A DNA stretch of 64,000 nucleotides from Raillietiella orientalis. Taxonomy: Eukaryota. A model generated the notes under the pieces. That model did not search any database and was not told where the DNA came from. It saw nothing but the letters and a program-made list of their open reading frames with translations. Both the position numbers and the translations under genes were made by a program. Below, one piece after another: positions 8,183-53,837 of the stretch. Location: NCBI GenBank assembly GCA_036172245.1, contig JAYWIR010000011.1, positions 1,364,001 to 1,428,000 of the forward strand, written 5' to 3'. Positions within the stretch are counted from its first letter, which is position 1. Every line of letters begins with the position of its first letter.

Positions 8183-10664
8183 GATGCCACCCGGATACGC
8201 CGGGACGTTTATTAAAACTTTTCAATCGTCAATACATTACGTGGTACAAGGCCCCACTAATGGCCAACATTCCCCAGGACCTGCCGGGACGCCGGGACGC
8301 AGACCAGCGTGACTCTCCTCGGCAGTGGAAGAGGAAGGGGGCAAAAACAAAAAGAAAAATAAAACAATAACCGAAAAAAAAAGAGATCTTGGAGGGAAGG
8401 GAAGGGATCACTGTCCGCTGCGTGGAGTTACTATCCTTTGCAGGATGCCGACAGGTCCTTCTGCAGATTTCCCAGGTGGGGCCATCGGGTTGCTATTTGC
8501 AGAAAGCGACTCCATGACATCCCTTCCGTTAACATCTTCTGCTTCGTCGGATCCACTCCAAGCCGCCACAATACCGCGGATGCAGCTGAGCGTTACTACG
8601 ACACCGGCTGGCTACAGGGCGTCCCGCACGAAGAAAAGCCGAAAAACGTCTCTGGGAGGGTTACCTTCCACACTCTATCATGTTCCGCAGCGTGCAGCGG
8701 GTGTAGATGCCGGGACGCAGGCGGTTGCAGGGTTCTCCACTAGGCTGGTTTAACTTCGCCCACGTGGCAACCGTTTCTTCCAGCCATGCGCTGGAGTTAG
8801 CGGGGCTGCAGGCCATCCACCCGTTCTCCTTTGCCAGGGTGGCCATGCGTCCCAGGAGAAGGCCGCATCTTCTTATTTTCCGGCCGGGGCACAGAAGAAA
8901 AGACGCGAGTCCTTCAGTCCCGGACACACGTCTGGCGAGGAGGCGGGCCGGAACGCACCAAGGGGTGCTCCACAACTTCGCTGCTGTGGCCAAGGTTCGG
9001 CATCGCAGCTGAATTTCCATGCGCTCCAGAGTCAGAAGACCTAGACCACCATCTCGACGCGGAGCGCACAAGTCCATCAAAGGGACTCGGGGCCTGCCCT
9101 TGCCCCAAAGGGCGATGCGCAGGAGGTCCTTTGTACTCTTTTTTATTTCCATGGGGATGGGGCAAACAAAAAGTAGGGGGCGAAGGATGGGGGCCGCAAA
9201 CGCGTTCCATACCGCGGCCCGTTCTGGCAAGTGGAACTTGCCCTCCAGGAACGGGTCGATCTCCAGCTCCACTTTCTGGAGACGGCCTGACCAGGTTTCT
9301 GACGGGCAGAAGTCCCCAACGGAACGCCAAGGTACTGCAGATATCCGCCCGTCGGGATCCTCAGGCGGATCCAATCAGGCCGTCCTACACACGTCGCTCC
9401 AACTGCAACCACCGACGATTTTGCCCTGTTAACCCGGAGCCCCGTCCCACGTCTTAGCAGGTCGAAGAAATATTCGACTGCCGTTGCCGGGGCGGACATT
9501 GGGAGCAGGAGCAGCAGATCGTCGGCATAGGCGGACACGGCAGGCGTGCCGGGGCACGAGCTTGGCAAGAGCCAAAGTCTTCCTGTAAGCTCTCAGCACC
9601 AACTCGAAGTAGGTGCTAAAGAGCAGGGGACTGAGGCTATCGCCCTGCCGTATCCCGCGGCGCACTCGCACGCCGTACACGTTTTGTCCTCTGAAAAATA
9701 TGTTCGTCAGCGCGGCGCGCCAGCAGGAGCGCAGGTACGCCGTTAAGGTAGGTGGGAAGCCCATGCGATGCAGAAGCTCCAGGATAAGCTCCTGGTCCAC
9801 GCAGTCGAACGCCTTGTGGAGATCGACTGCGATCGCTAGGGCACCCTTGCCCGCCCGGCTGTCCCCACCCTGAACAGCGGTCACCTCAAATTGGGGTTGC
9901 CGACAGATCCCTTCCGCTCTTTAACTTCGCTTTGCACATGAAACCATGTGCTGGCGAAGAACAGGTTAGCCTCCATACTTCGCCCGCGAACAGCGTAAGT
10001 CTGCTCCGGGCTAATTACGGATTCGGCTACCTGTCCGAGCCCCGCAGCCCACAGTTTCGCGACCAACTTGACGTCCGTGTTCACGACCGTGATCGGATGC
10101 CGGTTGTTCAACTTACGGAGGTCTCCTCCCTTAGGAAGGAGCCTCATCCTAGCTGACCGGAACGAGGCGGGAACATCGCCTTCTTCCCGGATCAGCTGTG
10201 TCAACCTAAGCACCAAGGGGGTCATCTCTGCCGCGAAGCTTTGAAAAAACTCCGCCGGCAGGCCGTCCTCCCCTGGCGCCTTAAGCCTCTTGAGCCTTTT
10301 AATCGCGATGATGATTTCACCGGTCGTAAAAGGCTCGTTTAGGCTTTCCCTCTCCTCCTCCGAAGAACTCGCGGACCGAACTCTTGAAGAAGTCCCAATC
10401 CTCGAGATTCCGGAGGGTGACGCCTCTCAGGAATTGGCGGAGATGATCCGCCGCACCTGGGAGCCTCGTCCAATCCCCCGGAAAACGCCACGCCCTGGAT
10501 GGGGGTCCCTTATGGCGTGGCCAAACATCCAATATCAGAGGAAATGGTCGGACAGCGTCGACGGGAGTCTTCCTCGTTTACCGACTCGTGTACACAGGTC
10601 GTAGTCGAGGAAAACGTGGTCGATGCTGTCCTCCATTTCCGGGTCCCCCTCCATCAAGTTGCGT

Positions 10665-10721
10665 CCAAGTCAGATATTGCACCAAGTCAGATAAATTCCC
10701 CGGCTCACCCGGGTGATGAAC
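10665..10721 (+). mobile_element. Minimal insert made essentially of the element's 3' terminal hairpin
   Basis: GATAAAttCCCCGG-CTCAC-CCGGGTGATGAAC preceded by a 12 bp duplication (CCAAGTCAGATA at 10665 and 10682). It interrupts the minus-strand EN between GGRL and RNL. Confidence 0.7.
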
Positions 10722-10989
10722 AACCGACCCCCTAAGATCCTCTCGATCTCATCGACGTCTCTTGCAGTGATCACGTGGATCTCCTGCAGGAGCGCCAGGT
10801 CGAATTCTCGCAGGATGTCGGCTGTATCTCGCCTGTTGCCGTCGTCGCGCAGCCCGTTGACATTCCAACAGGTCACGCGGATCCGTCGGCGACAGGCGAG
10901 CCCAGGGGTTATTCCTGGGAATGTGGCAGTGCGGCTCCCGCCACCTGATCGGGCGGGACGGATGGAGGAGGGGGTGCATCGCGCAACGG

Positions 10990-11210
10990 TTCTCCCTCCT
11001 CCATGGAGGTCGATTCCGCTGCAGCCCTCATCGGTGGGAGTAGGCGGGTATCACCTACCTGCTCTTCCTCCTCCATGGGGTCCGATTCGTCGGCTGGGCC
11101 GGTCGGTGGAAGGGGGAGGTTGTCACCTACCTGCTCCTCCTCCTCCATGGGGGTTGACAGCTGCTCGGTCACGGGGAGTGGGAAATTCCCTTCCTCCGTT
11201 CCCACGCTGC
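10990..11210 (-). repeat. ~72 bp imperfect tandem repeat (about 3 units) in ORF1 C-terminus
   Basis: PMEEEEQVGDNLPLPPTGPADESD / PMEEEEQVGDTRLLPPMRAAAEST / SMEEGEPLRDAPPPPS. Confidence 0.85.
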
Positions 11211-11384
11211 CGGCTTCCCCCCAGGCTGCCGGTGCGTCCCCCTCCTTCTTGGTCGGGATGCGCCTCCTTGGATTCTTGGACTTCCGTCCTGTCTTCTTTG
11301 GAGGCGCCTCCGCGGAGGAGGACGCACTACCGGCATCCGGATCAGCATCACCTTCTTCAGGTGCCTTGACCGCGGCCGGCCTTC

Positions 11385-12083
11385 TCAAGGCCTTTCGCGC
11401 CGGGTTCTCACGGCTTCTGTGGCTGCATTGGGGTCTACCCTGCAACGCGCGCCGCTTCCACTGGACGCGGGGAAGAGTAAATCCTGCGTGTGCCAGGTGT
11501 GGGGAGCGGGAGTCGCTCCCCCACCTCTTAGTTGAATGCCCTGCCGTCCAGATTCTTTGGGATCGGCTTAAAACGGCCCTCCGGATACCGGATGGTGGCA
11601 ATGTTGGATGTGTCTTCAGTCTTGTCTTCGTGCGGGACGCCCTCAGTCCAGCCGCAGCCCTGGCAGCACTTTGCTGCATTCGTGGTATCGTGGCGGCCTG
11701 GAGTGATGCCGAAGATGAAGACTGCATCGTGAGGGACGTCATCGAGTATGCTTCTCGCTTCCTGCAGAGAGCTACCCGATGGCCCCATCTAGGAAAACTG
11801 AAAATGGAACTAGAAGGCATCCTGCAAAGGATGGGCGCTCCCAGCAGTTTTCTGTGATCCCTTCCCGGCCCTCCAAACTTTTTTTTGTGGTTTGTTTTTC
11901 TCTTTTATTTTATTTTTGTTTTCTCCCCCATCCCCCTCCACTGCCGAGGAGAGCCACACCGGGCTGCGTCCCGGTGTCCCGGCAGTTCCGGTATTGCGTG
12001 GCCGTCAGTGGGGCCTTGTACCACGTTCTGTATTGACTGTTGAAATGTTTTTAATAAACGTCCCGGCGTATCCGGGTGGCATC
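11385..12083 (+). mobile_element. 5'-truncated Tx1/L1-like 3' fragment inserted antisense into ORF1 of the 8183-12850 copy
   Basis: LHWGLPCNARRFHWTRGRVNPACARCGERESLPHLLVEC...RWPHLG, stop at 11857, T-rich UTR, terminus at 12053-12083. Confidence 0.92.
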
Positions 12084-12854
12084 GGCCGACGAGTTCGGCC
12101 GCAAGCTCTTCCGCCTCCTGTTCGAAGGCGGCGTCCTCGATCACGGAGAGCGCGTCGCACGGCTCCTCCTCTGTTTGCAGAGAGGGTTCGCCTCCGGGGA
12201 TCGCGGCTTCGACGCAAACGAGGCGGGGGATATCTCCCCCGGTGGCGGCCTCTGAGGCCCCCACGCGCTCCAAAGTGACCGAGCATTCGCGGAGCAATGC
12301 GCGGCGCTGTTTCCTATTCAAAGGATTCGCAGCTGGCTCCGCTTTCGGGCCTTTGGTTTTCTTTGGTTTCTTTGGCTTCACCGTCTGCCAGCCCTCGTTC
12401 TCACCAGCGTCGTCGGGAGTATGCTGAGAGGGTTCGGGCTCTGGCTTCTGGATACGCCTTGCTGTAGCCTCTTTGGGCTTCGACGATTTTTCCGCGCGTT
12501 TCCCTTGAACTTTTTTCAAAGCGGGGGGAGTCGGAGTTTCGCGCTTTGGGCACACTTTCCGGAGGTGGCCCTTCTCTCTGCAGTGGAAGCACTGGATGTG
12601 AGGGCACTGTTTTTTCAGGTGCCCTGTGGCATCGCAGTGTCCACAGTACTTGGGTTTCCCCACGTACCAGACATCGACTGTCTCGCTGGCGACGTCCAGC
12701 TTGTGCGGTAACCCACCGTTTTCATGCACGGTTACATGCGCTGCGGCCATGCCACTAAAAGCCTTCCATAGGTTTGGAAGACGTTGAGCTTGGTCCAGAG
12801 CGCGTGTACCGTGCCGTACTTGCTGAGTTCCTCCTGCACGTCCGGTACCTTGCG

Positions 12855-13195
12855 GAGTACAAGGCCAGGGCCGAGTGCCAGGTTTGGCAGTCTGGAGCGG
12901 CTTGTCTGCTCGATGACGCTGGCCAGGAATGCTCGGCTGCAGCCGACGTAGTCAGGCGCTACTACTCCTCGACGGAACAGTCTCTCCGAGCTGCTTCTGC
13001 CGGCGGGTAACCCTGCTATCGACGAGGAGGAACGCGAAACTTTGGGCTTGCCCTTCACGGCGGAAGAAGTGTCTTCCTCCATAGAGGGCCTGAAGAGGTG
13101 TAAGGCGCCTGAGGAGGATGGCCTGCCCGTGGAGTTCTTTCATTGCTTCGCGGCAGAGCTCGTCCCTCTGGTGCTGAGCCTCTCCGCGCTGATGC
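12855..13195 (+). mobile_element. Tx1/L1-like linker and RT-start fragment
   Basis: WQSGAACLLDDAGQE..RRYYSS and LPFTAEEVSSSIEGLKRCKAPEEDGLPVEFFHCFAAELVPL, homologous to 53840-54170. Confidence 0.88.
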
Positions 13196-14740
13196 GTTTT
13201 GAACCCGGTCACGCCGGGACGTTTATTCGTGAAAACAAACCACAAACTTGAAGGGAAATTTATCCCCTCAAGACACAAGAAACGCCCATACAAAAAGTTT
13301 AGCCTGGAAATACCACCGGCACGCAGGCCAACTTCAAAAAGAAGGGAACGGGAGGAGAGGGGTACAAAATAAACAAAACAAAACAAAACAAACAAACAAA
13401 CAAACAGGGGAGGGTGGGGTCAGGGATCTTTGGTATCACACGTTGCTCATCTTTCTAGAAGCGCTGTTTGACGATGGCGACTTCCCTGGCGACTTTTCTG
13501 GACAGATGAAGCCACTTTGCAGCTGCCTCCATACGGTTGGCGGCTCTCCTGGTGGCGTCTTTCCGCTGTGAACTCCCTTCGAGCTTACGGCGGGCCGTCA
13601 CGATGGCGCGAATGCAACAGATTGTTGCAATCACAGCGCCTTTTTTCAGTCCGTCTTCGCTGAAGAAACGTCGCAGCAGGTCGATGGCAGTGTCCTGGGG
13701 ACGACGAAGTGCCGAAGCGAGTCTCCGCCATAACTCCTGCAAAACATTGCAGTCCAGAAGTGGGTGCGGAAGCGCGATTCCATCGCCCTGCACCTGAGGC
13801 AGTTCGGGGAGGCAACTCCCCCGGAAACCAAGTGTCTGCGCTTATTGCACTGAAAACCGTAGTGCAGGAATAGCAGAACATCCTGTTTCCATCGAAGCGG
13901 GAACACGGAGGTGTCCACACACAAAGAAGGGACCACGAGTTCTTCGGGGAGTAATCCAAGAACCTCACTCCCTTTGCCCGGTAACGAGGAGTGGCAGCCT
14001 CTACCAACACGCTCGTTTTGCAGCCGCTCAGCAGTCTTTCCACTCCTGCAATGCTGCAGAAGAACTCCCACCTTGCCGGTTGGCTACTGTCGTTGTTTGC
14101 CCTGAGAGCAGACAGCGCTGCGGCGATGGGTGAGACGGCTACCCGGGACCAAAGCGACCAGTCCTGTAGGATCACTCCTAGCTGTTTGCGTAAGAGGCCC
14201 TTTAGAGGTCGCAGTTGCTCTGGACGCACATCCAAAGTGGGAGTCCAGTGCTCCAGAGCTTCCTGCTGCCAAGCATTCCAGTTGGAGGGGCGGCAGGAAA
14301 TCCAGGAATGGGCTAACAACAACGAGGAGAGATGCCTCAGAGGGTCGGCAAATTCAGTTCTTCGGCGAAGGTTACGCGGCAGCAACGAAAGCAGTCCTGC
14401 ACTGCCGACACATCGCTGGAGGATATGGCGAGCCGGAGCACACCAGTGACTAGACCACAATTTCCCACATAGTCCAGCGGTAGCATGAGGCAGTAGAGTT
14501 GCTTGACTGGGGTCTTCCGGCCACGGAAGCGCTGACTCCTCTCGGGAGTGCGCCAGCTGCAAACAGGCGGATGCCTTCAGACACATGCCTCTGGACTGTG
14601 GTGAGCTTTAGCACATGCGCAGACACTTCGCAGTCAACGTATTCCGTCATGAGAAAAACTTCGTTAACTCCCCCTCACGGGGACTCACCTGGGTTACTGC
14701 TCTGCCGGCTCCATCTGGTAAGGATAGGATCTGATAGCAG
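13196..14740 (-). mobile_element. Tx1/L1-like 3' half, subfamily B
   Basis: KLWSSHWCAPARHIL..WISCRPSNW..VSGGVASPNCLRC..PHPLLDC..KWLHL; 3' terminus at 13196-13227. Confidence 0.85.
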
Positions 14741-14829
14741 ATCTCCTCGATGACGATATCAGGATCATGTGAAAGCTAATGAATTCAAGGCAGGACTTCT
14801 CTCTCCCTTTTTCGAGGTACTTATTGGCT

Positions 14830-16037: not shown

Positions 16038-17847
16038 GTTTTCACCCGGGTGAGGCGGGGCTTTTATTTTTTAAAAGAAACATTTTAACAATTTGTAATT
16101 GCAGTCGACCTTTTGAATTGTATTTGTGTTCCTATCGGAACACATTTTTCGTATTGTTTTGCGCTTGTTTACCGACTTGAGTGCCGGTAAGGCCTACTCC
16201 ACTCGCGAAGGGGAAGGGAAAAAGGAAAAAAAAAATACAAAAAAAAACGAAAAAAAAAAAAGAACGCTTGGGAAACATTGTTTATGGGGAGGGGGAGGGA
16301 AGGGAAGGGATCACTGTTCGCCCAGGGGAGGCCTCTGCATCTGGTTCCGGATGCTAACAAGTGCTGGCAGAATTTTTCTCAGTCGGCGCCAACGGGAAGC
16401 CTTCTCCATGGAGATGACCGCCCAGTGGATGGCATTCCGACTACTGCGGCCTCTTATCGACGCGTTCCACTTGTCCAATATTCCCCGTGTGCAGCAGAGA
16501 ACTGCAACACACGCGGCACCTGGCAGGGAGTTCCGCATCAGGAGGAGACGAAAAATGTTTTTAGGGTCGCCCACCGCTACGTTTATGGCCGACGAGAGTC
16601 GATCCCACGTGCGGCGGAGGGCAACACATTCGATTAGTAAGTGGCGGAAGGTCTCCCTTTCCCCGCACTCTGTACAATGGGCATTCAATCTCCCCAATGT
16701 CCAGTGAGACAGAACGTGCTCTGCTTAAAAGTCCCCAAGGGAGCACAAGCAGCGCCGCCTCCTGCCAATCCAAAGGGAGGGTGCCACTGTCCCAATACGC
16801 CGGGGTCCACTTCACCTCCTCCGGAGGCATGCCGAGCAGCTCGCCCCAGCGCACAATTCCATTTGGCGGGACACTCGGGGTTGTAGCGTCCGCTAGTTCC
16901 CGGGACGTCCACGCCTTCATTAGTTTTTTCCTGTCCCCGATGAGGCAGGACACTTCATACGAAGTCTCCTCTTGGCTGTCCCTGGCTTCCATAAGGGAGG
17001 GCAGCACGGGGGCAAGGGGGATGAATGAGGCCCACAAAAGCTTTTGTGGGTGGGATACGATCTCCCGCAGGGGCTGGCCAGCGTTCCTGCCTCGACGAAG
17101 GCAGGAGAAGTCCACCTCGCTGGAGCCGTTGATTTTTGCCCACGTGGAAACGGAATCCTGGAGCCAGGTAGTCCAGTTTGCGTGGCTGCAGGAGATCCAC
17201 GGGCTGCTCCTCACCAGGGCCACCAATTCACGTAGCTGTGAACCACAATGGTACAGTCTATTGTCGTTGGCTACGAGGACTGAAATCAGTCTATCGCAGC
17301 CGGTTGTCCTGTGGGCGAGGAATCGTATGGGCGCACACCATGGTGCTGTCCAATATTTTGCCGCAAAGGCAAGTTTTCTTAGTTGGAGCTGACGCTCCAT
17401 GCGCTCCAACGTCAGGATACCAAGTCCACCGTCCCTGCGTGGAGCGCACATGTCTTTAAGTCGGACGCGGGGCCTCCGGTTACCCCAAAGGGCTTTCCTG
17501 ATGAGGCCCCTTGTTCGTGTCCTAATTTGGGGAGGGACGGGGCACACAAAAAGTAGAGGGCGAAGGAGGGGGGCCGCAAAGGCGTTCCACACCGCTGCCC
17601 GTTCCCGCAAGTAAAACTTGCCGTCCCGGAACGGGCGATCGCTAACTCCACCTTTTGAAGACGGTCGGACCAGGCTTCTGCAGCGCACAAGTCCCCCAAC
17701 GGAACGCCAAGGTACTTGATCTACCCGCCCGTGGGGATCCCCAAGCGGATCCATGCCGACCGTCCTGCCCGCGACGAGTCAGAGAAGGTGATCGACGACT
17801 TCGTCCTGTTCACCTCGAGACCTGTCCCGCGGCGCAGCAACTCGAAG
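16038..17847 (-). mobile_element. Tx1/L1-like 3' third, subfamily C
   Basis: LLRRGTGLEVNRTKS..KYLGV..RERAAVWNAFAAP..LPLDWQEAALLVLPWGL..CTECGERETFRHLLIEC; terminus at 16038-16068. Confidence 0.9.
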
Positions 17848-20010: not shown

Positions 20011-21589
20011 ATTTTGTGATATTCATGCGGACTTCTCAGCTTCCTCGCCTATGATGTGAGTGAATTCGAACAATCAGTAATCAAGAAGAAGGTGTACACT
20101 ATGTACAAAATACACCTCAGCAGGTAACTTGAATAAAAAGAGCCGTGTATTGGATATGCTTGAGGCTGACTACACCGCTGCAATTCCTTTGCATGAAAAG
20201 AGATCGCTTAACGGCTTCGAAGAGTCGATGATTCTCTCTCGCCTGTCTGTTGCAATAAGCGATAAAACACGTGCACCAGGACACCTGAGGTGACGGAAGC
20301 AGTCGACTTCTGGAACGATTTCGCCGACAAGAACCGTGCCAATTGCGAAATCCAGGAAAGCCTCTTGTATGCACTCTGGGGATTCCAGTTCCATTAATTT
20401 TGTCACACTTGCTGCCTCACAGGAGATCCTCGAATGCTCGTCCATCTTCTGGATTTGTTGACTCTTAGTGAGGATGCAAGCAGTGCAGCGATAATTGATG
20501 TCAATGCGTGAGAAATTTCATCATATGAATTGAGGCAGCGCTCTATCCATTACATCACGTGATCCAGTGGGATAAGTTCCCTTTCTATTACTGCACGAGT
20601 GCATCCCGCACGAGAGTTTCACTATGGTTTTCGGATGCAGCGGAACACACCGAAGGAGCAAACTGCAGTTACGGAGAAAATTCGAAAAAATCTAGCGAGA
20701 TGCATGGATCGGAAACGCAGGTACGCGTTCGGAAGCTGCTCAAAGATACTGCATCTGAATCAGGAGGATCCTTATGCTCGTCCGCCATCACTGCTCGGTT
20801 TACCTCATTCTGTGCTTTCAATATGGTTAGCATTATGCTTTCTTGAAGCAAAGATTCAATCAAATCGTCTCTTTGCTGCCGCCAAACGTCCTGCGTTCAC
20901 TATGGCATTCGAACTGCATGAATGCTTCATTCGCAGCCAACCCCCCTTGGACCCAAACAGCAGAGATTTCATTGCCACTTTCTCAAAGAACTGCATCTTT
21001 TATGTTACTGATGAAGGCAGTCGTGGTCCTCGCCAGTGTCTTCATCCACTAAATGCCAATGAGCAGTAAGGTATGAAGCTTTCATTCAGAAACCGAAAAA
21101 TGTAAGCAGCAAGAAAACCACGTTCACATGTCAGCTTTCTCGATACGCTGAACATCTGATACCCCTCAAATTCAGCAAGGGCAGAAATTGATCTTTCGGT
21201 AGCTCCAGTTAGCAAGTTTACCTGAAACAAGTGTGAAATCACAAGCAAACTAAAAGTTGGCACCGTGGAGACTTCAACGATACCACCTTTTAGTTTACTT
21301 ATCTTTTACGACAAGGGAATGAAATTCGTGGGAGCGTTGTCTTAGAAAACACAGAGTCCATGAGCATTCTGTCAATTGGCAAAACGTGCAGCTCCATGGT
21401 AAGACGTATCTGTGTGTCTGCTTCTCGTTGGTGCGTTCTCAGACAATCAGAAGTTCACAATCTGACTACATCCCAAGCGAAACAGGTTTGCATCTGAGGC
21501 ATCCCTGCACATCTCGCTTGGATCCCATACTCTGAACTGCTTGCATTGGATTTTTTTCCCGAAAACCCACCAAACCTTACTTCTATCCC

Positions 21590-21790
21590 ATGTCTCTTCA
21601 CTGACTCTTAATCGATTCTTTTCCCTACACTTCATCTTTCCCTTCATTATAGTAATCATGTCCCTATCACACCTATTCTTTCTCCATAGAAGCTTTTCTT
21701 CAGACCCTCTAGGAACCAAGAGAAACCTAGACATACTCCCCTTCCGACCATTCTTCATCATTGAAGACCTAACAAGCCCTCTATCACTCG
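21590..21790 (+). pseudogene. CYTB: Mitochondrial cytochrome b fragment (NUMT)
   Basis: TLNRFFSLHFIFPFIIVIMSLSHLFFLH.SFSSDPLGTK.NLDILPFRPFFIIEDL matches cytb helix D with both heme His residues and the NPLG..D.IPFHP pattern. AGA codons fall at Ser-like positions, consistent with the invertebrate mitochondrial code. Confidence 0.9.
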
Positions 21791-22299
21791 CTTCGTTTTC
21801 CACTTCCTGATCTTTTTGATTGCAGGAACTCTTCCTGCTGCAAGGTATCACTCAAAGAGAGGTAGCCGGACACTTCTGAGAGACGTTCTAGTAATTTCTG
21901 AATAGAGTTTGCTTTTGAACATCCACTTCCGTATGCGGAAGGGGAATTCTGACATGAAAACTTCTCGCGACCCGAAGTGCTTGGACGTGACATGTAGGTG
22001 TTTTGACATCTCTGGCAAGATACGAAGTCAAGGACTCCACCACTGATGAATTCGTCTCCCGACCTTACCTTATGCAGCTTAAAAAATGCAGACTCTACAA
22101 AAGATCTTGCACGATTATCCTCTACATCGAAAAAAAAATATTCCTTCTTATTACATGCGCAATCGATGCGGAACAGGAAGTAGTCCGAGCATCATCAGAG
22201 TGAAGCTTTTCTACCTCACTTTGGTTATGCCCACTAGCCATGGTCATCGGAATGAGAATCGAAGAATCTCATAGTTATGTAACTGGGGATGCGGCTTTG

Positions 22300-30109: not shown

Positions 30110-31160
30110 CCAGCGCCTAAGAGACCGTGAATCATGGGGAACTGTCCCTCCCACGCCGCACCAACAAACATCTGGGAACTGAGTTCCCAGATGTTTGTTG
30201 GGACAGGCCAAGGGACTAGAAGTTCAAAGGCAGGGCTCCCCGACACGCAGGTAGGGCACACCGAAAGTTTAGAACGGGAGGGAGGGAACAACAAATAATT
30301 AGAAAAATACAAAAGAGACATGAGGATCAGAAAACAGGGGTCTTTGATATGAACCGTTCCTTACTCTCAGAAACAGCTCTCCTTCCTCATATCTTCTTTA
30401 AGATGAGGCCACCTAGCAGCCATCCTGATGTGGGCGTCTGCAATCCTGACGACCTCTCTTGGAACCGTTCATGACTCCAACAGGTGTTTGGACAACACGA
30501 TGGCGCGGATGCAAGTGATCGTTGCAATGACCACTCCTGGCGAGAGAAGGACACGTGTGAAGAAGCAGCGCATAACGTTGAAGGCGTTGTCTCCCGGGTG
30601 CAGGAGAGCTGAAGGCAGCCTCTGCCACAGTCCTTGAAAGGCACCGCATTTTGAAGAACAGCTGTGGGAGCGATTCCACTGCTCTGTACCTTCTGTACTT
30701 CGGGGAGGCAACTTCCTCGGATCCAACGTTGGTGCACTGGCTGCAATGGAAGCCCCAATGCAACTGGAGAAGCGCGTCCTGTTTCCACGGAAGAAGGAAC
30801 ACAGAAGTGTCTACGCACGAGGGAGGGACCACAAGTTCTGGGGACACACGAAACTGCTCGCGCCACCGTAGGATTCCCTTCGCACAATTACAAAGAGTAG
30901 CGGCCTCTGCCAGTCCGTTCGTCTTCCAGCCGCCCAAGGGTCTGGTTTCTCCAGAAAGCGTGTAGGAGACCTCCAACCCGCAAATAGGCAACTGTCATTG
31001 CTTGCTCTGAGGGCAGGCAGCCCTCCGGCAGCTCGGAGAACTCATGGGCCTCTCGTGCGTTCGAAAGGCTCACTGCACTCCCGTTGCTGCGACGCGCTGA
31101 TCACCATTCTCTTGATTGGACGGCGTGCCTGTGCGGCGCGGGGTTCTGCAAGGAAACTGT
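30110..31160 (-). mobile_element. Tx1/L1-like 3' fragment, subfamily B
   Basis: LGGWKTNGLAEAAT..ELVVPPSCVDTSVFLLPWKQDALLQLHWGF..GVVIATITCIRAIV, homologous to 13450-14100. Confidence 0.85.
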
Positions 31161-36600: not shown

Positions 36601-38264
36601 GACCACAACAATCCTTCAAAAGTTAGCCAGTGCCCACCCATGCCCTAATTAACAACCCGCAAGTCCATAAATTCAAATTACCTACGGACAAAATCAACGA
36701 TCTCAGCGCTCTCTTGTTCCTACCCAATCTCATCCCTACTATTATTGTGTAACCATCCAAATTGCTAAATATAAATTCATAAGACCAAACGCCTGAGTGG
36801 TTAGGAGACACAGCACTATTTTCTATCTTATTTCATTACACGGGTTTCGCTATCGGTTGCATTCACAGTCATCACCATCCTCCAAGAATCAACCCCAACT
36901 CAACAGACCCAACTCAACACGTGCTGCCCTCTCAATTGAAAAAAAAAAGGGGGGGGGCACCCAATCGTCTTCCTCCACTTATGGATAACTGGAAACATTC
37001 ATACGTCAAATAATCGCCGCCGAACAGAACAGAAGTGCATTTTCTACGTACAGAATCCACTGTATTGAATCAGGAAGATCCGTGCTTTGAATATAAGTTT
37101 CTAATTCATTCCAATCTGGGGAACATGTAAGATGGAGTCACTCTCCCCATTCTACTTGCCTCTTCTTCCTCAACTCCATTTCCCATCACCACGAATTGTG
37201 CGCACCGCGAACAATTATACATCCGTAATACAGAAGGCAACCCATAATTATCGATGCGGAGACCATCTTCTGATTCGACCGATGTCACTTCTGTGCAACC
37301 TCCGGTGCATGGAGAATGCTGCGCCCTATCTGATGTGACACCATAGAAATAGGTGATCAATGAATCCATCCATTCCGTCCTCCTCGAAAATATTCGCTAT
37401 GAAATCCTACCACAACACAAAATTCTATTCGTGCATCCAGATTTGTCCTGCAAACATTCTGCATGTTGCTGAGGACTACCTGAAGTCATCAACCGAATGC
37501 AGGGGTGAGAAAACATATCGCGTAAACAGCACCACAGGTCATTAAGCAACCGTCGAACCACCGTGCAATTAATTAGGGTTCTTGGCGTCCTTGCTGCTTC
37601 CTGGTCGCCTTTGCAAAAATTCCTGGACTCCTCTTCCCATTAAGCAGAGCACATTGTGTAAGCATACACTTAGAACTGTGTTCTCGCTGCTCATTCTTGT
37701 CCATTTAAGTTGGCCTCGCAGGTTGGTCTCTGTGCGGATGCTAGGTCGTCCCTCAGCGACCTCGTTTCCCATCAATGTTCCCATCTTTTCTCTAGGACTC
37801 GCATATCTGTGTGCACCAGTGGAGTGAATACCTCGGGTAAAGATGCACTTCCCACAGCACAAGATGGTGAGAAGAACAAAGTGACGCTTTCTGAAGTTAC
37901 TCACGAAGGAAGGATGCCGTTCCCTCTGGGCAACACCGTAGAATCAGGATCGACCAATCGATCACTCGTCAGTCCCTCCTCTAACCTCTGAAAAGAAAAC
38001 GGAACCATCATTTGGAGCGTCAAAAGAGTTGCTAGGACGCACCCGTCGAGCATGCAAAATTCCACATTTGTTGATTTCATCCTTCCAACCACTTCCACCA
38101 CCTCCGTCTTCAAGCCAAGAAGAGCTCAGCCAGGTCAACGTAAACCTAAATCTGGCATCGCCTTCCGCAATCGCAATCAGAAGAACATCGTTGTCCTATA
38201 ATTGCCCTCCAAGCATACGTTTCGAAGACGCCCGACTTCTGCCCGACTACTCACCAGTCCGCTG

Positions 38265-38908
38265 CAAAGCGCACCTCACCCACTGGACTCGTGGCAGTGT
38301 GGATGCCTTTTGTGCACCGTGCGGAGAGAAGGAGACCTTCTCCCACCTTCTTGTGGAATGCGTCGCCCTCCGCCCCCTCTGGGATCGTCTTCCTACGATC
38401 CTGAACATTGACGGAGGTACACCCAGGTACATTTTCCGGCGACTCTTCTCGCGTGCCTCCTTGCCCCCGGCAGCTTCCTTAGCAGTGCTGTACTGCATAC
38501 GCGGAATCGTGGCGGCATGGAATGCGTCTAGAAGATGCACGAATGGCAGGGATGCCACCCACTGGACGCGAATATTCGCAAGAAAGCTCTCCAGGTGGCC
38601 CCACCTGGGCGTGAACGGGACCCAGCTCGCTAGGATCCTAAATAGGATCTAGAGGACCAATCCACGCGCAGTGTGGTCCCATCCCCGCCCCTCCCCACTC
38701 CCAGAACTTTGTGCCCTCCCTACATTTCTCCTTTTGTTTGTTTTTTGTTTTAATTCTTCCTACCCCGCGCGTTGGATGGACCTCGCCGGGTTTTGCGCCG
38801 GCAACTAGCTTGCTGTTGTGGAGTGGTGAGCCCTTGAGTTCACCACAAGAAAGTAACATGTATTTTTATTTGTTTCAAATAAATGCCCCGGCACATCCGG
38901 GTGATAAC
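38265..38908 (+). mobile_element. Tx1/L1-like 3' fragment with terminus
   Basis: HWTRGSVDAFCAPCGEKETFSHLLVEC..CIRGIVAAW..RWPHLG, stop at 38652, terminus at 38878-38908. Confidence 0.9.
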
Positions 38909-40318: not shown

Positions 40319-41149
40319 CGCGGACAATCCACTTGAATGGAGGGATGGTGGTTTCGGCGTGTATTCAGCGGACGAAATGCACCTATGAGGTCACGAGGCA
40401 GAAAAAGGCACGAAGCACACGGTCCACGCGGCATTCATTGCTGCATACAGCACTGATTTTCTGTTCGAGGAGGAAGGCCTTCTGTTCTTGAGCTCCTTGT
40501 CATCAGGGCTGTTAGGATCAGCCTCCCGTTTTCCGACAGCTTGAGGAATGGTTGCCGTGGCGGACCACACGTGCACAAGCGCTCAACGACCTTAAAAAAC
40601 CGCTCAGAAGAATGCTCTTCAGGTTCGCGTAAACTTCTGGAATGACTCCGACGAGCGCTTGCTCAAACCTTTGACATGGACCTGTGCGCCCATATCATAT
40701 GACTACTTGGTCCATGATATCTAGAACTGGAGTTTCTTTTCATGGTTGGGTAACGTCGTCAGGTATTGCATGGATCGGGGCTTCGAGGTCCTATTCCGTT
40801 CAGCATCATTTTTCCTGCCGCAGTGTGATGGTCGCTGCTTAAAATTTCATTGCTTCCTGGTGTTTCTCTCGATTCTGTAAGTCGACAAGCTTCTTCGAAT
40901 TCAAATTCTCGGGATGTTCGTTCAGCTGTCGAGCAAACTGCCGATGACTGAGGAGTCTTTTCCTCCCTGGATAGTGTAGAGTTCAGTAAAGTGTTCGATC
41001 TCTGTACTCATTTGAAGGCACTTCGTCTTGACCAAAGTGGACGCTTCCAGCGGCACAGTAGGCACGCAGAACGGATGAGGTTCTTCGATAGCCTGAAGCA
41101 CGACGGGCTGCCGGAGGCACAGTGCGCGAAAGGCACACCTGATGGATGG

Positions 41150-42594
41150 AGATTTCAACCTCCACTTCAGGATGCTGGCTTGGGCATCCTGATATTGGAA
41201 AGAATCGGACTGCAAGTGCAGTTCCGAATGCTGGCGCCGCGTGCCAAGCTGTGGACTCCCCCGTTGTGCGCTCCTGCACGCATTCTTCTACGGAGATGCG
41301 CCTGCAGCGAAGGATTGCTCTCGTTGGTGCCGGGCACTCAGTACAGGATGCGGGGTTTCGGAATCCCATTGAGGCAATTGACCTCACTTCTGGAAACCCA
41401 AACGTGGATCTCCTGCCTCCCAATGAACTTCAACGCTTGACGGCAGGAAGCTGTTGAGTCCTGGGTTGCGTTCCAGGAAATGCGCCCTGAAGATCTTTGC
41501 CCCCTGCGACATCTCCTACCTCTACCACTGGGAGAGTAATGCAGGACGCAGTAAAGCTTTCAGCACTGTTCGCCACGCCTCTTGCTGCAGCACTGTCTGC
41601 ACTCAAGGCAAGCGATGACAGGAGTCTAGCAACGAGGTGGGAGTTTTCCTGCCCCGTCGTGGGAAAAACCAGACTCCTTGGCGGCTGGAAGACGCGCGAG
41701 CTGGCGGATGCTGCCACTCCGCTTGCCGTGGCGACGGGATTCCTTCAGTGGGGCTAACTTTTGAGTGTTATCTCCGAAGAACTTGTCGTCCCTCCCTATG
41801 GTTCTCACAGTTCCTTGATCTCCCTCGCCTGGAAACAAGCCATACTGCTCTTCATCCACAGAGAATTCCAGTATAATGAGCGACCGCATCAAGTTTCCGG
41901 AGGAGTTGCATCTCCGAACTGTGGCAGGTACGAGTCGCCGGAGTCGATCCCGCACATGCTTTTGGACTGCAGTACCCTCCAAGAACTGTGGCGGAGCCTG
42001 GCAACGGCACTTATGCACCAGAAGGATACCGTAAGAGACGTGCTGCGGTGGTTCTTTGCTCCCAGAGGTCTCTCCACGGGCCACGTTATTGCAACCATGG
42101 GTTGCATCCTCGCCATCGCTTCGGCCCGACAGGTGCTGGAAATCACCGGGCATCAAAGGAAGTTCATCAGGATGGCAGCCAATTACATCGGGGCGGCTGC
42201 CAAGTGGTCTCACCTGGGAGAAAAAGCAATGCGACATCCACTGCCGGTTGATGGCCGGTTTGGGACGGCGAACCCGGTAATCCTTGTCCTCTTCCTCCTT
42301 TTATTTATTTATTTTTTTTTTAGTCCCCCGTTCCCTTACGCTCTGTGACTTTCTTGGTGAATTTCGTTTATATCCCGGTGATTGCGGAGCGTTACCAAAG
42401 ATCTTTACCCCTCCCCTCCATCTTGTTTTTGTTTTTTTGCTGTTGTCCCCATGTTCCTCCCCCATTCCGGACTATCCGTTATCCCGCCTTGCATGCCGGT
42501 GGATTCTCCCCTATGTTTCTTTGTTGTATTGGTTGTGGTCTTTGTTCCTCACCTCTTTATTTAATAAACGACCCGGCGTGACCGGGTGATAAAT
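41150..42594 (+). mobile_element. Tx1/L1-like 3' half, subfamily B
   Basis: GLGILILERI..KLWTPPLCAPARILL..LAWKQAILLFIH..VSGGVASPNCGRYESPESIPHMLLDC..KWSHLG; terminus at 42563-42594. Confidence 0.9.
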
Positions 42595-46130: not shown

Positions 46131-46189
46131 GGTTCCACAAACATCAATAACCAAAATCGAATTACTAGTCTTGAACACTCAAATCAAAA

Positions 46190-47163: not shown

Positions 47164-47857
47164 AGTGTACGATTTCACTCGTTTTTTTTTTAATGAGTTT
47201 ACGTACAAAGTCACGTTTTTGGGTGATTATGGATCGGTTGATTCGTCGCGAGTCGGATGGTAAAAAAAAAAAAGACTTTGGAAATTTGGGAAAATGCAGC
47301 TGAGCTTTAGGGGCGGATCGCAACGGGAAAACGGGAAAAAGTTTGATGTTGTTTGCGAAAGATTCGGAGAACGCTTAGGCGAACCTTTTCGCCCGGCCCT
47401 TGCGAGTTCTCCCGGGCACCTTGGAAGGGGCGGAGAAGCTTCTCTTTTCGTTTTTCGAAGATGGCCGCGAGCCCGGGTTGCGCGCATGCTTGGAACGCAG
47501 TGCCGGAAGGATGGGAAGGGGTGTTGAGGGGAGCAATCGGTTCGATTGCAACCGGAAGAAGCGATTTGAGGGAAGAAAGCCGCTTGCGAAAGACATGGCG
47601 GCGGTGCTCGGAGGCAGCGGAATGCTCCGTGGGCAAACGGCGAACGGGAACTTTGCTGGGCTGAAAGGGTGAGGCTTAAATGGGTGGATTGAGGAAGCGT
47701 AAGTGCCCGCGTCGGAGGCTGTGGGGCTGCGGTCTCCGCGCGTGGTGCCAAGCGCCGCGGGTTCGAATACGCTCGGCGGGAGTGGACGCTGCGCCGTCCC
47801 CCCCCCGAGTTTCTCTCCCCGCAGGATGGGCGCTGTTGGTTCTCGTTCGGGTGCGGC
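47164..47857 (+). repeat. Left arm of ~700 bp inverted repeat (partner 59317-60014)
   Basis: Reverse complement of 59317-60014; the differences seen are length changes in homopolymer tracts. The ORF track gives identical peptides on opposite strands. Confidence 0.97.
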
Positions 47858-47960
47858 TCCGGTAGCGATCCAGACGGTGATGCACCCCACCGATGAGTGT
47901 TGGTCCCTTCGGGGAAGAACAGCAGCGCACGTGTGTGCTCAATGCATGTTCCTCGTGGAT
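47705..47960 (+). repeat. tRNA-derived SINE-like or Pol III repeat, copy 1
   Basis: Starts GCCCGCGTCGG, B-box GGTTCGAATAC at 47760-47770, TTAAAT at -29 to -24. Confidence 0.55.
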
Positions 47961-48459
47961 TCAGCCAGTTGTATGAACACACGACAACACTTTTTGTGGG
48001 GGGAGGGGGAGGGTGCCGTGGGAAGGGGATGGCTTCTCACGGGCACAGCCACCACCACCCACCTACCAAGAATGTTGAAAGCTTCTGTTGAAGAGTAGAA
48101 ATCCTTCCGTCCGGATGGTGGGTGCTCATTCTCTCACCTTCGCGCAGGGGGATGCGGGGCGTGGCCGCAAAACCGACCGGCAATCCGCGTACAGCATGGA
48201 ATGTTGTGGCTCCCGGAGCATGCGGAGAGCGTTTCCTGGACCGTCAGGGTGCCCGAGGCTCTCTCACCAAAGTGGGCCCGTACCGGTGGCACCAGCTTCA
48301 TCGCCATCCAACCGATAATCAGTTCTTCATTCCCTGCCTACATCATCTTGCCATACGTTTTTCCGTAATAGATGATGAATGGGTTTCAGCATCACTCATA
48401 AATTCGGATTTGTCAACAAAACGTGGTGCGCCTCTTCGCTCTGCTGCGGAGGTGAGCCC

Positions 48460-49720
48460 CGCCGCTCCTCGAACCGGCATCGTGGCGGCTTCCTTGCTCG
48501 TGGACCCTCGTACGACCAAGTGTCCTTCCAAATCGGACCAGTGGCCACCTATGTACGTTCTTGGAGAAGAATCGTCCCGGCTTTACCTGGCGGGAACGCC
48601 GGCAGCAGAGCTCGGAAGGAGCGATCAGCTTGCGAGCGCGGACGGGAGGGCGCGTTCCGGGGTCGGTCGTGCTTCACCTGGCCGGCTGGATCTGCTCTCC
48701 GAGACAACGGGCGGTGGCGAGCGTGAGCAACTGCCTGTGATGAAGGCCGTCGTGCCCGCCGCTCCATCAGGCCATGGCTCGGGAGGCAAGGTTCTGTGGC
48801 TGTGGGGAGCGCTCCTGTTCCCGATGCAACCTTCCGCATTCAGGAAGCGCGCGAGACGGTGAATTCTTCACTCCGTGGATGCTCTCTCAGCAGAGGCAAG
48901 GCCCCCAGGCGTTTACTGCAGAGTGGAACGAACGCAGTTCCAGGGAGCAGCCGCAAGACTACTCCAACCCACCCACTGCTAATTCATTCGATCGTTCCCT
49001 TTGTTCCTTCTCCCTGCATCCTCTCTCTACCTGATCGCGCCACCAGTGAGCGCTGGCCACTCCGACCTTGGGCTGGTTCTGCGACCTCTCTGAACCGCAT
49101 TTTACTTGTTTCGTATCGAGTCGCAGCCCTCAGCATCGCGTCGAAGCCCGCAGAACTTCGGTCCGATGCTTCGAGACGAACGAGGCCAAAAACAAACAAA
49201 CAGATCAATGCGGAAAGAACTGCAGGAAAGGAACGATTCGGGAGGAATAGTGGGAAGCACCAATAGCGTTTCCGAATGAGGAGGTACTCCAGAATGCTCC
49301 GGGGACCTTCAGATGGAGCAGCTGGGATGCGTGGGCGAATCATACGACTGTGCACTCCTCCGTACCGGGACTCCTCGCTTCGAAGCCCTACAAGGAGCGC
49401 TTATTGTGCACTCTGGAAAAGGAGACAAAAGAACGCCAAAGGACACGGGAGGTTCTGGTGCATCTGCGTTTACGAGTTCCAAGGTTGTTTTTGCCCTTGC
49501 GTGCAAGAGCGTCGCACTTGGGAGGAGGGCTGGCTGCTACTCAACGATGGGGCCAGTGCTCAACCGGAAGCCAGGCCACTTTTTCTCCTGGCCTGCGAAC
49601 GCGTCCGCTCTTCAAGGTGCACCTCGCATACTCCCTTGAGGCGAAATTTCCCACGAGGAGTCGTCCAGGGTGGCAAGAAAAAGGTCTGCCACGTTTTGGG
49701 CAGTATCGAGCACAGCATTT
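48460..49720 (+). mobile_element. Decayed Tx1/L1-like ORF1 fragments
   Basis: GFLARGPSYDQVSFQIG resembles YLASGYNPCLRYKVG; QGGKKKVCHVLGSIEHSI is a degenerate knuckle. Confidence 0.5.
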
Positions 49721-49721
49721 A

Positions 49722-50220
49722 TTCCCTCAGAACTCTCCAGGACGTTTATTTTATAAAAATGAAACACCAGCTACAGAGGAAGAAGGACATCCCCTCAAAA
49801 GACAAGAAAGGCCCCAAAGCAAGAAGTCCGGCCAGGGTAACCACCGACACGCAGGTCGGCTTCCAAAAAGTAGGGAACGGAGGGGATGGATAATAAAGAA
49901 AGAAAGAAAGAAAGATCGGAGGGTGGAGACAGGGGTCTTTGGTATTAGACGTTCCTGAATTTCTAGAAGCGGCTGTTGATGGTGGCGGTCTCCCTGGCGA
50001 ATTCTTCTGGAAGACAGGCCGCCTTGCTGCTGCCATGCTGGTGATCTCTGTTCGCCCCGAACTTGACTCCAGCACGTGGCAGACTGTCACTATGGCGCGG
50101 ATGCAACATCTCGTTGCGATCACAGCGCCGTGTGGGTCGGGCGTGCATTGGCGCGTCCAGCGAGTTTGGTGAGTGGTGTGGAATGTGGCTATTGGGCGTC
50201 GACCCGACGCCTGGAATGCC
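49722..50220 (-). mobile_element. Tx1/L1-like 3' fragment, subfamily B, degenerate terminus
   Basis: GAVIATRCCIRAIVTVCHVLESSS; ends AATAAACGTCCTGG-AGAGT-TCTGAGG. Confidence 0.8.
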
Positions 50221-52111
50221 AAGTGGCCCTGACAGTGAAGTCCAGGGAGCAGGGACGGAAGCCCTAGAGCACAGGGCGCCGGAGGGGACACCCGTCTCTT
50301 CCGCAGAAGAATCGGCGTCCCCCAAGGGGACGCTGTGGAGCGCTGTGGCTGCGGCACCTTCGCCAGCGGTCGCGGCAGTGGCTACGGCTTACCTCGCCTC
50401 GGGCTACAACCCGTGCCTGAGGTACAAGGTAGGTCAATTGTGGAATCCAGCAGTAGTGCGCTCCTTCTCGGAGGAGCTTTATAAGCTGCAAGTCAAACAG
50501 GAGGAGCTCGTCGCCCTCTCCATTCTGAGCGGTGGGCAGACAGTCGAGGTGGCTTGCAAGGAGGCGAGCCTTGCCTAAAGACTGATGCACACACCGATTA
50601 CAATCGGAGGGCGCAGGATCTTCCCTGTGACGGAGGACTGCTCAAGATCGTGCACCTTACCGGAATTACAGTGAGGATGATCAAAGAAGCAGTCGTCCGC
50701 TCACTGCAACAGAACGGGACGGTCCACGCACTGTGGTCAGAGCCCAGCGTCTTCCCCGACTTTCCAGGGGATCAGATCTAGCCGGAGCGCGAGTGGCTGT
50801 ATGGTAAGAAGAGCTTCCTCACAGACTGGAGGTCAGCCGTGAACCCGTCGACCTCTGGTACACGGGGAAACCAAAGGTCTGTACACACTGTGGCAAGTCG
50901 TGTCACCTGAAGGGAAGGTGCCTCGATATTATATGCTATAGATGCGGGAAGAGCAAACTCGGAAATTCTTCTGCTCCCTCAGACCCGGCAGACCTTCCAA
51001 GAGCGCGCCGGAACGGAAGAAAAATAAAAAGCAAAATAAAAATAAAAATAAAAAAAGGAATAAAGAAAAGAGATCGCGCGCGATTTCGTCAGAAGGAGGA
51101 AAACAGGCGAGGAATGCCAGCAAGGAGGTTCCTCCCCCCGATGCAACCAAGGTAAGTCCCCGACGCCGAGGCAGCACAGGAGGAAGAAGGCTGAACGGTG
51201 GTGACCCGCCGAAAAGAAAAAAAAAAAAAAACATACAAACAAAAGAAACATCCTGCGACTTTCGCGGCTTAAAGCTCCGAAGACCGCGAAAGACGCTATC
51301 GATTGCGCTGTTAGGCACGTTGCGGAGGTCGTTGTCGTCGAGATCAATGACCTCGGAAATAGCGCGATTGACAAGGTGGCCACTACTTGTAGCCTGGACG
51401 CAGCTGTACCGAACGGCGCAACAGCGAATGCTGCTATGGCGAAGCCTCTAACCGTCGGAGGCGCGACAACGCGCGAGGCCACAGAGGCCGGTCGGAGGGG
51501 AATCTGGAGACCCACACGGGGACCTACCCAGGGGTCGTCGGAATCCGAAACCAATACCTGACCTCTTGCCCCGAGCCGGAGGCTTGCCACTCGACATTGC
51601 GGAGGGCCAAAGCGGCTAGAACGCTCCAGGCCCAAGTCGAGCAGGAGGAAGCCTCCGCACTAGGAAGGATGCAGGAAGGTTCGCGGGAATCCTCCGTGGA
51701 GGCCATCCTGCGAACCCCTACACAAAATGAAAGGAGGGAGGAAGGGGATGTGGTTTGGGCTCCCCCTCCCCTCCCGGACACCGCGCCGGTCGAGAGCCGG
51801 GTGGGTGCTACGTCGCCAGATTCCCTGCAGTAATGCATGAAATGACGTCCTCCCGTCGCTTGCGCGTGGCCGTTTGGAACGTGAACGGCCTGCGCGACGT
51901 CGTGAAAAGACGCGACAAAGCCCACTCCCTACGAAACTCCGACTTTGCGCTCCTCGAAAAGATCCACGTGATCGCGGACGAGGATGCCGCTGACTTCGAA
52001 CGGATCGCGGGAGGAAAGCTGCATTGGTAGTGCGGAACCCGTAAATCGAAAGGGGTGGCCTTCCTCTTGAAGCCAGCCATCATGCGCGCGGTGCACAGCA
52101 TACGGTTCGAC

Positions 52112-52666
52112 GTTTTCACCCGGTCAAGCCGAGGCGTTTATTGTAAACTTCGATATTTGCAGTGCAAGGCTCCGCTGCGGCCAATTAAACAAGGGACCCG
52201 TCGGTGCGCAGACCGACTTGACACTCCACGGCAGCGGAGGGGGGTGAGGAAAAAACAAAAAGAAAAATAAAAGATAACTGAAAAAAAAACTATAGTTCTT
52301 TGGAGGGTCGGGAAGGGATCACTGTCCGCTTTGTGGAGGTTCCATCCTTTGCAGGATGCCGACGAGGTCCTTCTGCAGATTTCCCAGGTGGGGCCATCGG
52401 GTTGCTATTCGCAGAAAGCGAGCTGCATACTCCATGACATTCCTTTCGTTTACATCTGCTTCGTCGGATCCACTCCAAGCCGCCACAATACCGCGGATGC
52501 AGCTGAGCACTGCTACGAAAGCCGCTGGCTGCAGGGCGTCCCTCACGAGGAAAAGCCGAAAAACGTCTCTGGGAGGGCTACCTTCCACGATCCCTAGGGT
52601 CGTACCGAAACGTTCCCACAGAATCCGGAGGGCAGGGCAGTCAACTATAAGGTGGGGGAGGGACTT
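52112..52666 (-). mobile_element. 5'-truncated 3' fragment inserted antisense in the endonuclease
   Basis: SLPHLIVDC..CIRGIVAAW..RWPHLG; terminus at 52112-52142; very similar to 8400-8670. Confidence 0.92.
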
Positions 52667-53189
52667 CAGGGTTTCGAGGAACCGGGAACGTTCCCGGTTC
52701 CTCGAAACCCTGGAGCACGACTGGCTGGCTGATACAAACGTACGCAAGGCACATCTGATCGGTGAGGATTTCAACATCCGCCTGCTCTCAGGTGTGCCTT
52801 GAGAGCAAAAAGACGCGGCCAACGAGTTGCGCGCTGCTATGCGCATGCGCAACTTGTTGGGGGACCTACCGGAAATGGTCCAAAGAGTCGACCACGTCTT
52901 CCTTGACGCCGACCTGTGCCCACGGGTCGGCAGACGAGGGAAACTTCCGTCGACGCTATCGGACCATTTCCGGCTCATTTTCGAGGTTATGCCTCGCGAC
53001 AAAGGACCACCATCCAGGGTGTGGCGTCTGCCCGGGGACTGGACGCGGATCTCAGGTGCGGCGAAACATCTCCACCAATTCCTGGGAGGCTTCATCCTCC
53101 GGAATCTCGACGACTGGGACCTCATGAAGGTCTCGGACCGCGAGTTCTGCGAGGAGTTCCATGTGCACCGCCTGCCCCGGGGATTTGGT

Positions 53190-53837
53190 GTTGCCACCCG
53201 GGTACGCCCGGGGCGTTTATTGAAACTCTACAAAAACGTGGTGCCAGGCCCCACTAACGGCCGCACAACACCGGACCTGCCGGGACGCCAGGACGCAGCC
53301 CGGCGTGACGCTCCTCGGCAGTGGAGGGGAGTTTGGGAGAAAACAAAAAAAATAAATAAATAAATAAAATATAGAAAAACAAAAGGAGTTTGGAGGGAGG
53401 GGAAGGGATCACTATCCACTAGGAGGAGGGCCCATCCTTCGCAGGATGCCCTCTAGGTCCTTCTGCGTTTGTCCCAGATGTGGCCATCTCGCAGCTCTTT
53501 GCATGAAGCTCACAGCATACGGGATGACTTCCCTCTCGTTGGCATCCACTCCTTCGTCGCAAATGTCGCTCCAGGCCGCCACGATGCCCCGGATGCAGCA
53601 GAGGGCTGCGAGGGCTGCGGTGGGCTGCAGGGCGTCCCGCACGAAGAGGGGCCGAAGAACGTCTCTGGGCGCGCTGCCCATTGGGAGCCCGAGGGTCGTC
53701 CCGAACCGTTCCCACAGGGGTCGGATGGCAGCACAGTCAACTAGAAGGTGGGGGAGCGATTTCCGCTCCCACACCTGGCACACTCAGGGCTTACACTTCC
53801 TCGCGTCCGCTACTGCGGGCGTGCCGGGGCACGAGCT
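53190..53837 (-). mobile_element. 5'-truncated, internally deleted 3' fragment inserted antisense after the endonuclease
   Basis: SLPHLLVDC..RWPHLG; terminus at 53190-53221. 53818-53837 matches 9543-9562 exactly (RT region just before YADD). Confidence 0.92.

Follow-up and report, generated by a model that had tools for sequence, protein, structure and literature searches.

Template choice by long interspersed elements (LINEs) has been well worked out for few elements, and for the L1 group what is known concerns almost entirely the recognition of poly(A). A compilation of L1 tails lists other endings as well. In flowering plants, 224 of 233 L1 families have an (A)n end and nine no 3' repeat, and among 15 green-algal families two end in (A)n, eight in other short repeats, including (CAA)n, (CA)n, (CATA)n and (TAA)n (Table 1 of that paper), and five in no repeat (PMC3472496). 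In the monocot L1 lineage around LINE1-1_ZM, a conserved 3' hairpin of ~45 nt is common to the LINEs and to the short interspersed elements (SINEs) ZmSINE2/3 (Ohshima, 2012, PMC3472496). An algal L1/SINE pair, L1-1_CR with SINEX-3_CR, is also described, and stringent 3'-end recognition has been proposed as ancestral in the L1 clade (PMC3472496). In zebrafish L2 (ZfL2), the ORF2 protein (product of the second open reading frame, ORF) binds a 3' stem-loop (PMC4176376). Here we describe a hairpin-bearing block that ends nine LINE copies in a 64,000-nt stretch of the Raillietiella orientalis genome (assembly GCA_036172245.1, contig JAYWIR010000011.1, positions 1,364,001 to 1,428,000 of the forward strand), called the window below and numbered from its first letter. 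On balance, we favor the view that an L1-group LINE family with stringent 3'-end recognition has this block as its 3' tail. The original prediction took 3' stem-loop recognition to be foreign to the L1 group, a premise that was overstated, since L1-clade cases have already been published (PMC3472496).

At all nine sites the block has the same order: AATAAA, a 3-nt spacer, CCCGG, a loop, CCGGG, and a 7-8 nt tail resembling T(G)-N-AAC, 31-32 nt altogether. The nine had been listed in the original prediction, and the sequence bears out every one. A covariance model built from them and run with its filters off gives the sites themselves 40.7-48.5 bits, while the runner-up in the 64 kb reaches 14.6 bits. 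In LINE copy A (8183-8213, minus strand) the block reads AATAAA-CGT-CCCGG-CGTAT-CCGGG-TGGCATC, and nested insert C (12053-12083, plus) has the same sequence; both score 47.7 bits. The remaining blocks belong to a mini-insert (10690-10721, plus; 40.7 bits), the only site at which GATAAA replaces AATAAA, to copy F (13196-13227, minus; tail TTCAAAAC; 41.5 bits), copy H (16038-16068, minus; 42.7 bits), copy I (38878-38908, plus; 48.5 bits) and copy J (42563-42594, plus; tail TGATAAAT; 48.3 bits), and to nested inserts D (52112-52142, minus; 46.1 bits) and E (53190-53221, minus; 45.4 bits). Just 5' of its hairpin, the mini-insert has two direct copies of a 12-nt sequence, CCAAGTCAGATA, at a distance of 17 nt (10664-10695, plus); the GATAAA variant may be an artefact of this local duplication, as the second CCAAGTCAGATA copy supplies it.

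The stem departs from its standard form at three sites, as previously noted: 52112 has a U-G pair, 16038 a C-C mismatch and 53190 a 6-bp stem. The loop, 5 nt long except for 4 nt at 53190, is of six types, CGTAT, CGTGA and CTCAC twice each and CACAT, CTTGA and CGTA once each, which agrees with the free loop variation claimed at the outset. The tails are TGGCATC (two sites), TGAAAAC (two sites), TGATAAC, TGGCAAC, TGATGAAC, TTCAAAAC and TGATAAAT. The exact pattern CCCGG-N4-5-CCGGG occurs six times in the window against 0.13 expected, and none of 100 shuffles attains six. A relaxed pattern, with one mismatch allowed per block, finds the nine sites and no others, compared with a mean of 1.5 in 50 block shuffles. 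Two degenerate versions had also been proposed. Both lie where a 3' end is expected, but the model matches them weakly: at 5729-5763 (minus) the stem is decayed and the tail TGAAAAT intact (9.9 bits, E 9.1, alone not significant), and at 49718-49753 (minus) the stem is decayed and AATAAACGT intact (12.8 bits, E 2.2). The latter ends a copy resembling F; by BLAST within the window, 13262-13640 aligns with 49789-50129.

Decayed LINE copies are nested in one another in the window. Mapping of ORF2 C-terminal frames on it gave 12 LINE 3' regions, of which eight have an intact motif downstream in the correct orientation, two have a degenerate version, one (fragment K) has none and one (copy B) is cut off. 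The eight are the reverse transcriptase (RT) and C-terminus of ORF2 in copy A (10333-8470, minus), upstream of the 8183 motif; nested insert C (11411-12082, plus), a 5'-truncated LINE 3' part inside ORF1 of copy A; the ORF2 C-terminus of copy F (14607-13335, minus), a copy that adjoins a plus-strand RT fragment at 12906-13197; ORF2 of copy H (17849-16380, minus), upstream of the 16038 motif; the ORF2 C-termini of copies I (37942-38757, plus) and J (40952-42345, plus), the latter upstream of the 42563 motif; and the C-terminal coding parts of inserts D (52675-52343, minus) and E (53768-53433, minus), upstream of the 52112 and 53190 motifs, respectively. The ninth intact motif, at 10690, ends an extremely 5'-truncated insert of ~58 nt that lies antisense within the endonuclease region of copy A. 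Upstream of the degenerate motif at 5729-5763 lies a fragment of an ORF2 C-terminus (6942-5981, minus). Copy B (51863-55685, plus) retains an endonuclease remnant, the RT and a partial C-terminus, lacks its 3' end, and is interrupted by inserts D and E, each antisense to it.

The motif is the end of the element at these sites. None of the nine is followed by an A run or a microsatellite, as had been reported, and the 40 nt 3' of the tail are 24-25% alike across the nine sites, which is chance level. In the four copies that can be aligned (A, C, D and E), similarity ends right after TGGCATC, TGAAAAC or TGGCAAC, and thus about 7 nt past the stem, where the original prediction had placed the end. 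Contigs from one public sequencing run, aligned at 80% likeness, offered two informative joints; most of these contigs are paralogous or related sequences (288 of 391 are <90% alike), with low depth at the ends of the untranslated regions (UTRs). One contig represents an empty site: it connects 11410 to 12083, skipping 672 nt, with 4 nt that fit both sides. The tetranucleotide CGGC flanks insert C (11411-11414 and 12083-12086), and ORF1 of copy A, the host frame, is open across the join. From the contig and the open frame it follows that insert C, its motif included, is a mobile unit that ends in TGGCAT(C) and was inserted with a duplication of at most 4 nt. The second contig matches a C-like end as far as the first base past the stem, continues with seven other letters and passes into LINE sequence like that from 10404 onward, with no A run. 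The results support the motif as the true 3' terminus of the mobile unit, neither a target repeat nor a sequence once followed by an A tail.

Insert E ends differently. Between its canonical end and the host duplication GAGGAG (53151-53156 and 54011-54016) lie 33 extra bases (53157-53189, minus), which match nothing else in the window when three mismatches are allowed; they could be read-through, transduced sequence or filler. There is no repeat array at the tails. One AAC or ATC unit at most ends eight of the nine copies, and a second AAC directly follows the tail in two (8183 and 10690). The terminus may therefore represent, in one or two units, the (CAA)n-type tail recorded for algal L1 families.

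The conservation of the block can be judged across lineages. The nine ends represent six of them: an A-type lineage (A, C, D and E), F, H, I, J and the mini-insert at 10690; the decayed copy at 49722 groups with F, and that at 5740 is most similar to I. Between lineages the ORF2 C-termini are 25-55% identical. Mean pairwise identity over the six lineages is 0.94 for AATAAA, 0.93 for the 5' arm and 1.00 for the 3' arm, against 0.47 for the loop, 0.40 for the spacer, 0.57 for the tail and 0.24-0.27 for the flanks. Within the A-type lineage, copies A and C agree at 31 of 31 motif bases while their UTRs are 72% identical (P = 4e-5). The remaining A-type pairs are less striking (P 0.01 to 0.36), since loop, spacer and tail differ. 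As read from these alignments, the pattern is the signature that selection on the signal and on both arms in active source elements would leave.

Several features support placing the element in the L1 group, as far as protein likeness goes. RVT_1 was recognized at 53745-54839 (plus) and 9432-9920 (minus) (Pfam, E 1.6e-14). Among structures in PDB, human L1 ORF2p is the best match of the RT (E 1.8e-34) and R2 follows at E 1.9e-11, a contrast limited by the lack of PDB representation of other LINE clades. An unnamed protein of 619 aa is 72% identical, and the remaining relatives, including plant L1-like proteins and a fish RT protein, are 25-32% identical; full-length relatives have the architecture Exo_endo_phos (PF03372), RVT_1, zf-RVT. 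The other domains of this architecture are faint in the window. The endonuclease region is disrupted in both longer copies, with a weak Exo_endo_phos match at 10673-11050 (minus; E 4.4e-4, below the Pfam cut-off), and zf-RVT is weak in three C-terminal frames, that of copy I among them (E 0.008-0.027, below the Pfam cut-offs). A zf-CCHC match is present in the ORF upstream of copy A (E 7.9e-4, below the Pfam cut-off), and a CxxC...H....C string is seen in the ORF of copy I. The missing poly(A) does not exclude the L1 group, since L1-clade families without poly(A) are among those in Table 1 of PMC3472496. Target specificity in the style of Tx1 was not seen: the downstream flanks are at the chance level given above, and the two defined duplications, CGGC and GAGGAG, differ.

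How the block compares with the described tails depends upon the system. The tails of the eel element UnaL2 and of ZfL2, which belong to the L2 clade, end in short tandem repeats used for slippage, and these are absent here; in UnaL2, loop bases matter, whereas the loop here is free. In R2, reverse transcription begins at one particular nucleotide, fixed by the structure of the 3' UTR, whatever lies downstream. R2 and SART1 differ from the present family in being site-specific, in belonging to other clades and in having larger 3' UTR structures, and SART1 retains a poly(A) tail. SART1 is alike in that the structure of its 3' UTR also fixes the nucleotide at which reverse transcription begins, whatever lies downstream (PMC3472496). 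UnaL2 and ZfL2 are alike in the short 3' stem-loop, which is bound by their own ORF2 protein and needed for retrotransposition (PMC4176376; PMC3472496 citing Kajikawa and Okada, 2002), and in that cDNA synthesis begins just 3' of it. The monocot LINE1-1_ZM is, as the account of it goes, an L1-clade element with a hairpin in the last ~45 nt, interpreted there as stringent 3'-end recognition, and a 3' end far more conserved than the rest, as here. However, conservation there falls on the loop (UCU) and the 3' flank (CGAG), and the stem varies with compensatory changes; in the present family the stem is invariant and the loop free, an A tail is lacking, and AATAAA directly precedes the stem. The monocot L1s also share their tail with SINE partners, none of which was seen in this window. 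Like this family, green-algal L1s do not depend on a plain A tail, and the AAC here could be a single unit of the (CAA)n type; unlike it, L1-1_CR ends in poly(A), and a hairpin of this sequence is not described in what that source says of the algal families.

If recognition is stringent, the mechanism might follow the lines of these systems. The ORF2 protein would bind the hairpin together with the AAUAAA and UG flanks on its own RNA, and binding would position the RNA for target-primed reverse transcription to begin a constant ~7 nt 3' of the stem. With a fixed start there, poly(A) or read-through past the start point would not be copied. The terminal AAC may act like the short 3' repeats seen in other stringent LINEs, in a minimal form of one or two units, and AAUAAA probably is, or formerly was, the transcript's poly(A) signal as well. 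A more specific version, which we offer only tentatively, is that the ORF2 protein reads a minimal signal (5-bp GC hairpin, AAUAAA and UG) and starts cDNA exactly at the poly(A) cleavage site, leaving the tail uncopied.

The hairpin is able to form: 39 of the 40 cells of the stem comparison pair, and it is present in seven of the nine minimum-energy folds of the last 100 nt. Several observations weigh against stringent recognition of an RNA hairpin. In the other two folds, different pairings displace the hairpin, and the folding energy of the last 100 nt is unremarkable (z from -2.5 to +1.2; F and I alone fall below -2). None of the five pairs shows a compensatory change: three are constant, one varies one-sidedly and one is broken once. 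Covariation is absent because the arms are invariant, and shuffling cannot lower the score; with no compensatory changes, a palindrome conserved for another reason is conceivable. Fragment K (30280-30651, minus), an ORF2 C-terminal fragment, has no terminal motif in the 580 nt downstream. Insert E, with its 33 bases past the canonical end, indicates that initiation is not always precise. All nine sites are LINE ends, and model and pattern scans revealed no SINE-like partner with the same tail in the window. The UTRs had been called otherwise unalignable. BLAST indeed yields no alignment between lineages, but all lineages have an overall layout in common: a T-rich tract, a C-rich block, one or more GC hairpins and an AT-rich spacer before the motif. 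Finally, the sample consists of nine motif copies from one 64-kb window.

Other hairpins were also seen in these UTRs. The 3' UTR of fragment K contains a perfect 19-bp hairpin (41 nt, ~30162-30202, minus). Members of the A-type and I lineages have a further small hairpin, its loop GCC(C)TTG, 30-60 nt upstream of AATAAA (8231-8268, minus; 11997-12034, plus; 52149-52186, minus; 53228-53265, minus; 38814-38852, plus). Two of its six predicted pairs are changed on both sides among the five sequences, a weak signal. In its place, copy F and the decayed 5740 copy carry unrelated hairpins of 10 bp.

The same ends would result if the RNA's own end set the terminus, an explanation we consider unlikely. 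Here the hairpin and AAUAAA would define or stabilize the transcript 3' end, by cleavage ~22-25 nt past AAUAAA or by a poly(A)-independent cut just past the stem as in histone mRNA, and RT would start at the physical end of a non-adenylated or deadenylated template. The copy end lies 16-26 nt past the end of AATAAA at nine of nine sites, which is the usual spacing of a cleavage site, and the AATAAA is 94-96% conserved. The 33 extra bases of insert E could then derive from a transcript cut further downstream. Against this, ordinary polyadenylation should leave A tails, and none of the nine sites has any; moreover, RNA-end definition alone does not explain invariant arms around a free loop. The histone mRNA 3' stem-loop is likewise a short GC stem with a loop of 4-5 nt, an end few bases past the stem, and no poly(A), but its sequence is unlike the present one, and here a conserved AAUAAA stands just upstream of the hairpin. 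Rfam, searched over the whole window at E <= 1, returned two unrelated weak matches; at the motif sites no family matched, not even that of the histone 3' stem-loop.

A lesser chance still, and in our judgment a slim one, is that the CCCGG...CCGGG inverted repeat acts as sequence and not as RNA structure, either as a double-stranded DNA site for a dimeric protein or as a signal in cDNA or second-strand synthesis. The invariance of the arms, which leaves pairing unproven by covariation, is compatible with such a role, and the motif is nearly palindromic and alike on both strands (all six exact matches are reported on the plus strand). However, the sole arm change that preserves pairing is C to U, and the resulting U-G is neutral at the RNA level alone, and the asymmetric flanks (AATAAA 5', TG-N-AAC 3') and the fixed extreme 3' position fit an RNA tail. 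That the motif is a pre-existing target repeat, an idea suggested by the position of the target-specific Tx1 lineage inside the L1 clade (PMC3472496), or that A tails were present and then lost, is hardly credible: the former is contradicted by an empty-site contig with neither LINE fragment nor motif, by unrelated sequences 3' of the motif and by a host reading frame that resumes directly after the tail of insert C, and the latter by the lack of an A run at any of the nine sites.

Searches beyond the window bear on how widely such a tail occurs. Scanning metagenomes for the motif gave at least 119 loci, which by eye are prokaryote-like hairpins; among the loci listed, tblastn (E <= 1e-3) showed likeness to the LINE proteins in none of the 119, and DNA matches were limited to three trivial ones of 30-32 nt, so that the scan added no copies. 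A stricter motif had no match in prokaryote genome contigs, and the motif pattern gave no locus in viral contigs. No published description of this particular tail was found in the literature, Repbase and Dfam being outside the scope of the search. We regard the block as a new member of an already known class, that of stringent LINE tails, of which the L1 group has few examples, and as less novel than first claimed.

A few other features of the window deserve mention. LINE-in-LINE insertions are all antisense to the host, in five of five cases (chance probability ~0.03): 11411-12082 (plus) and 10664-10721 (plus) in copy A, 51974-52847 (minus) and 53157-54010 (minus) in copy B, and F (13196-14607, minus), which abuts the plus-strand RT fragment 12906-13197. 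With five cases, this could reflect a strand-biased preference for nick sites. Pfam searches of 70 non-LINE frames detected only a cytochrome b fragment. Its open frame (21466-21807, plus) is of mitochondrial type and corresponds to residues ~170-232 of cytochrome b of the bc1 complex (E 1.2e-15 to a solved structure); in a gene-poor stretch, it is probably a nuclear insertion of mitochondrial DNA. The LINE cluster at 48-59 kb lies between the arms, ~12 kb apart, of a 698-bp inverted repeat with 99.4% identity (47164-47857 and 59317-60014), which may have arisen by recent inverted duplication or may form the two ends of a larger element. The G+C content is 31% in positions 1-4000 and 46-59% nearly everywhere else (one 4-kb bin has 42.5%), with a sharp boundary near 4000.

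The gain from this family is incremental, since the general principle has already been published. For annotation, its copies are to be delimited by the hairpin and tail and not by an A run, and tools that seek poly(A) would misplace their ends. A tiny hairpin tail in place of an A tail would make for a simple system in which to assay binding and retrotransposition. Such a family would also be one more case bearing on the proposed ancestral status of stringent recognition in the L1 clade (PMC3472496). If it is true that cDNA starts exactly at the poly(A) cleavage site, the tail would be a hybrid of mRNA-type 3' processing and stringent tail recognition, and the family a compact natural intermediate for the shifts of an L1-type enzyme between structure-specific and poly(A)-specific template choice.

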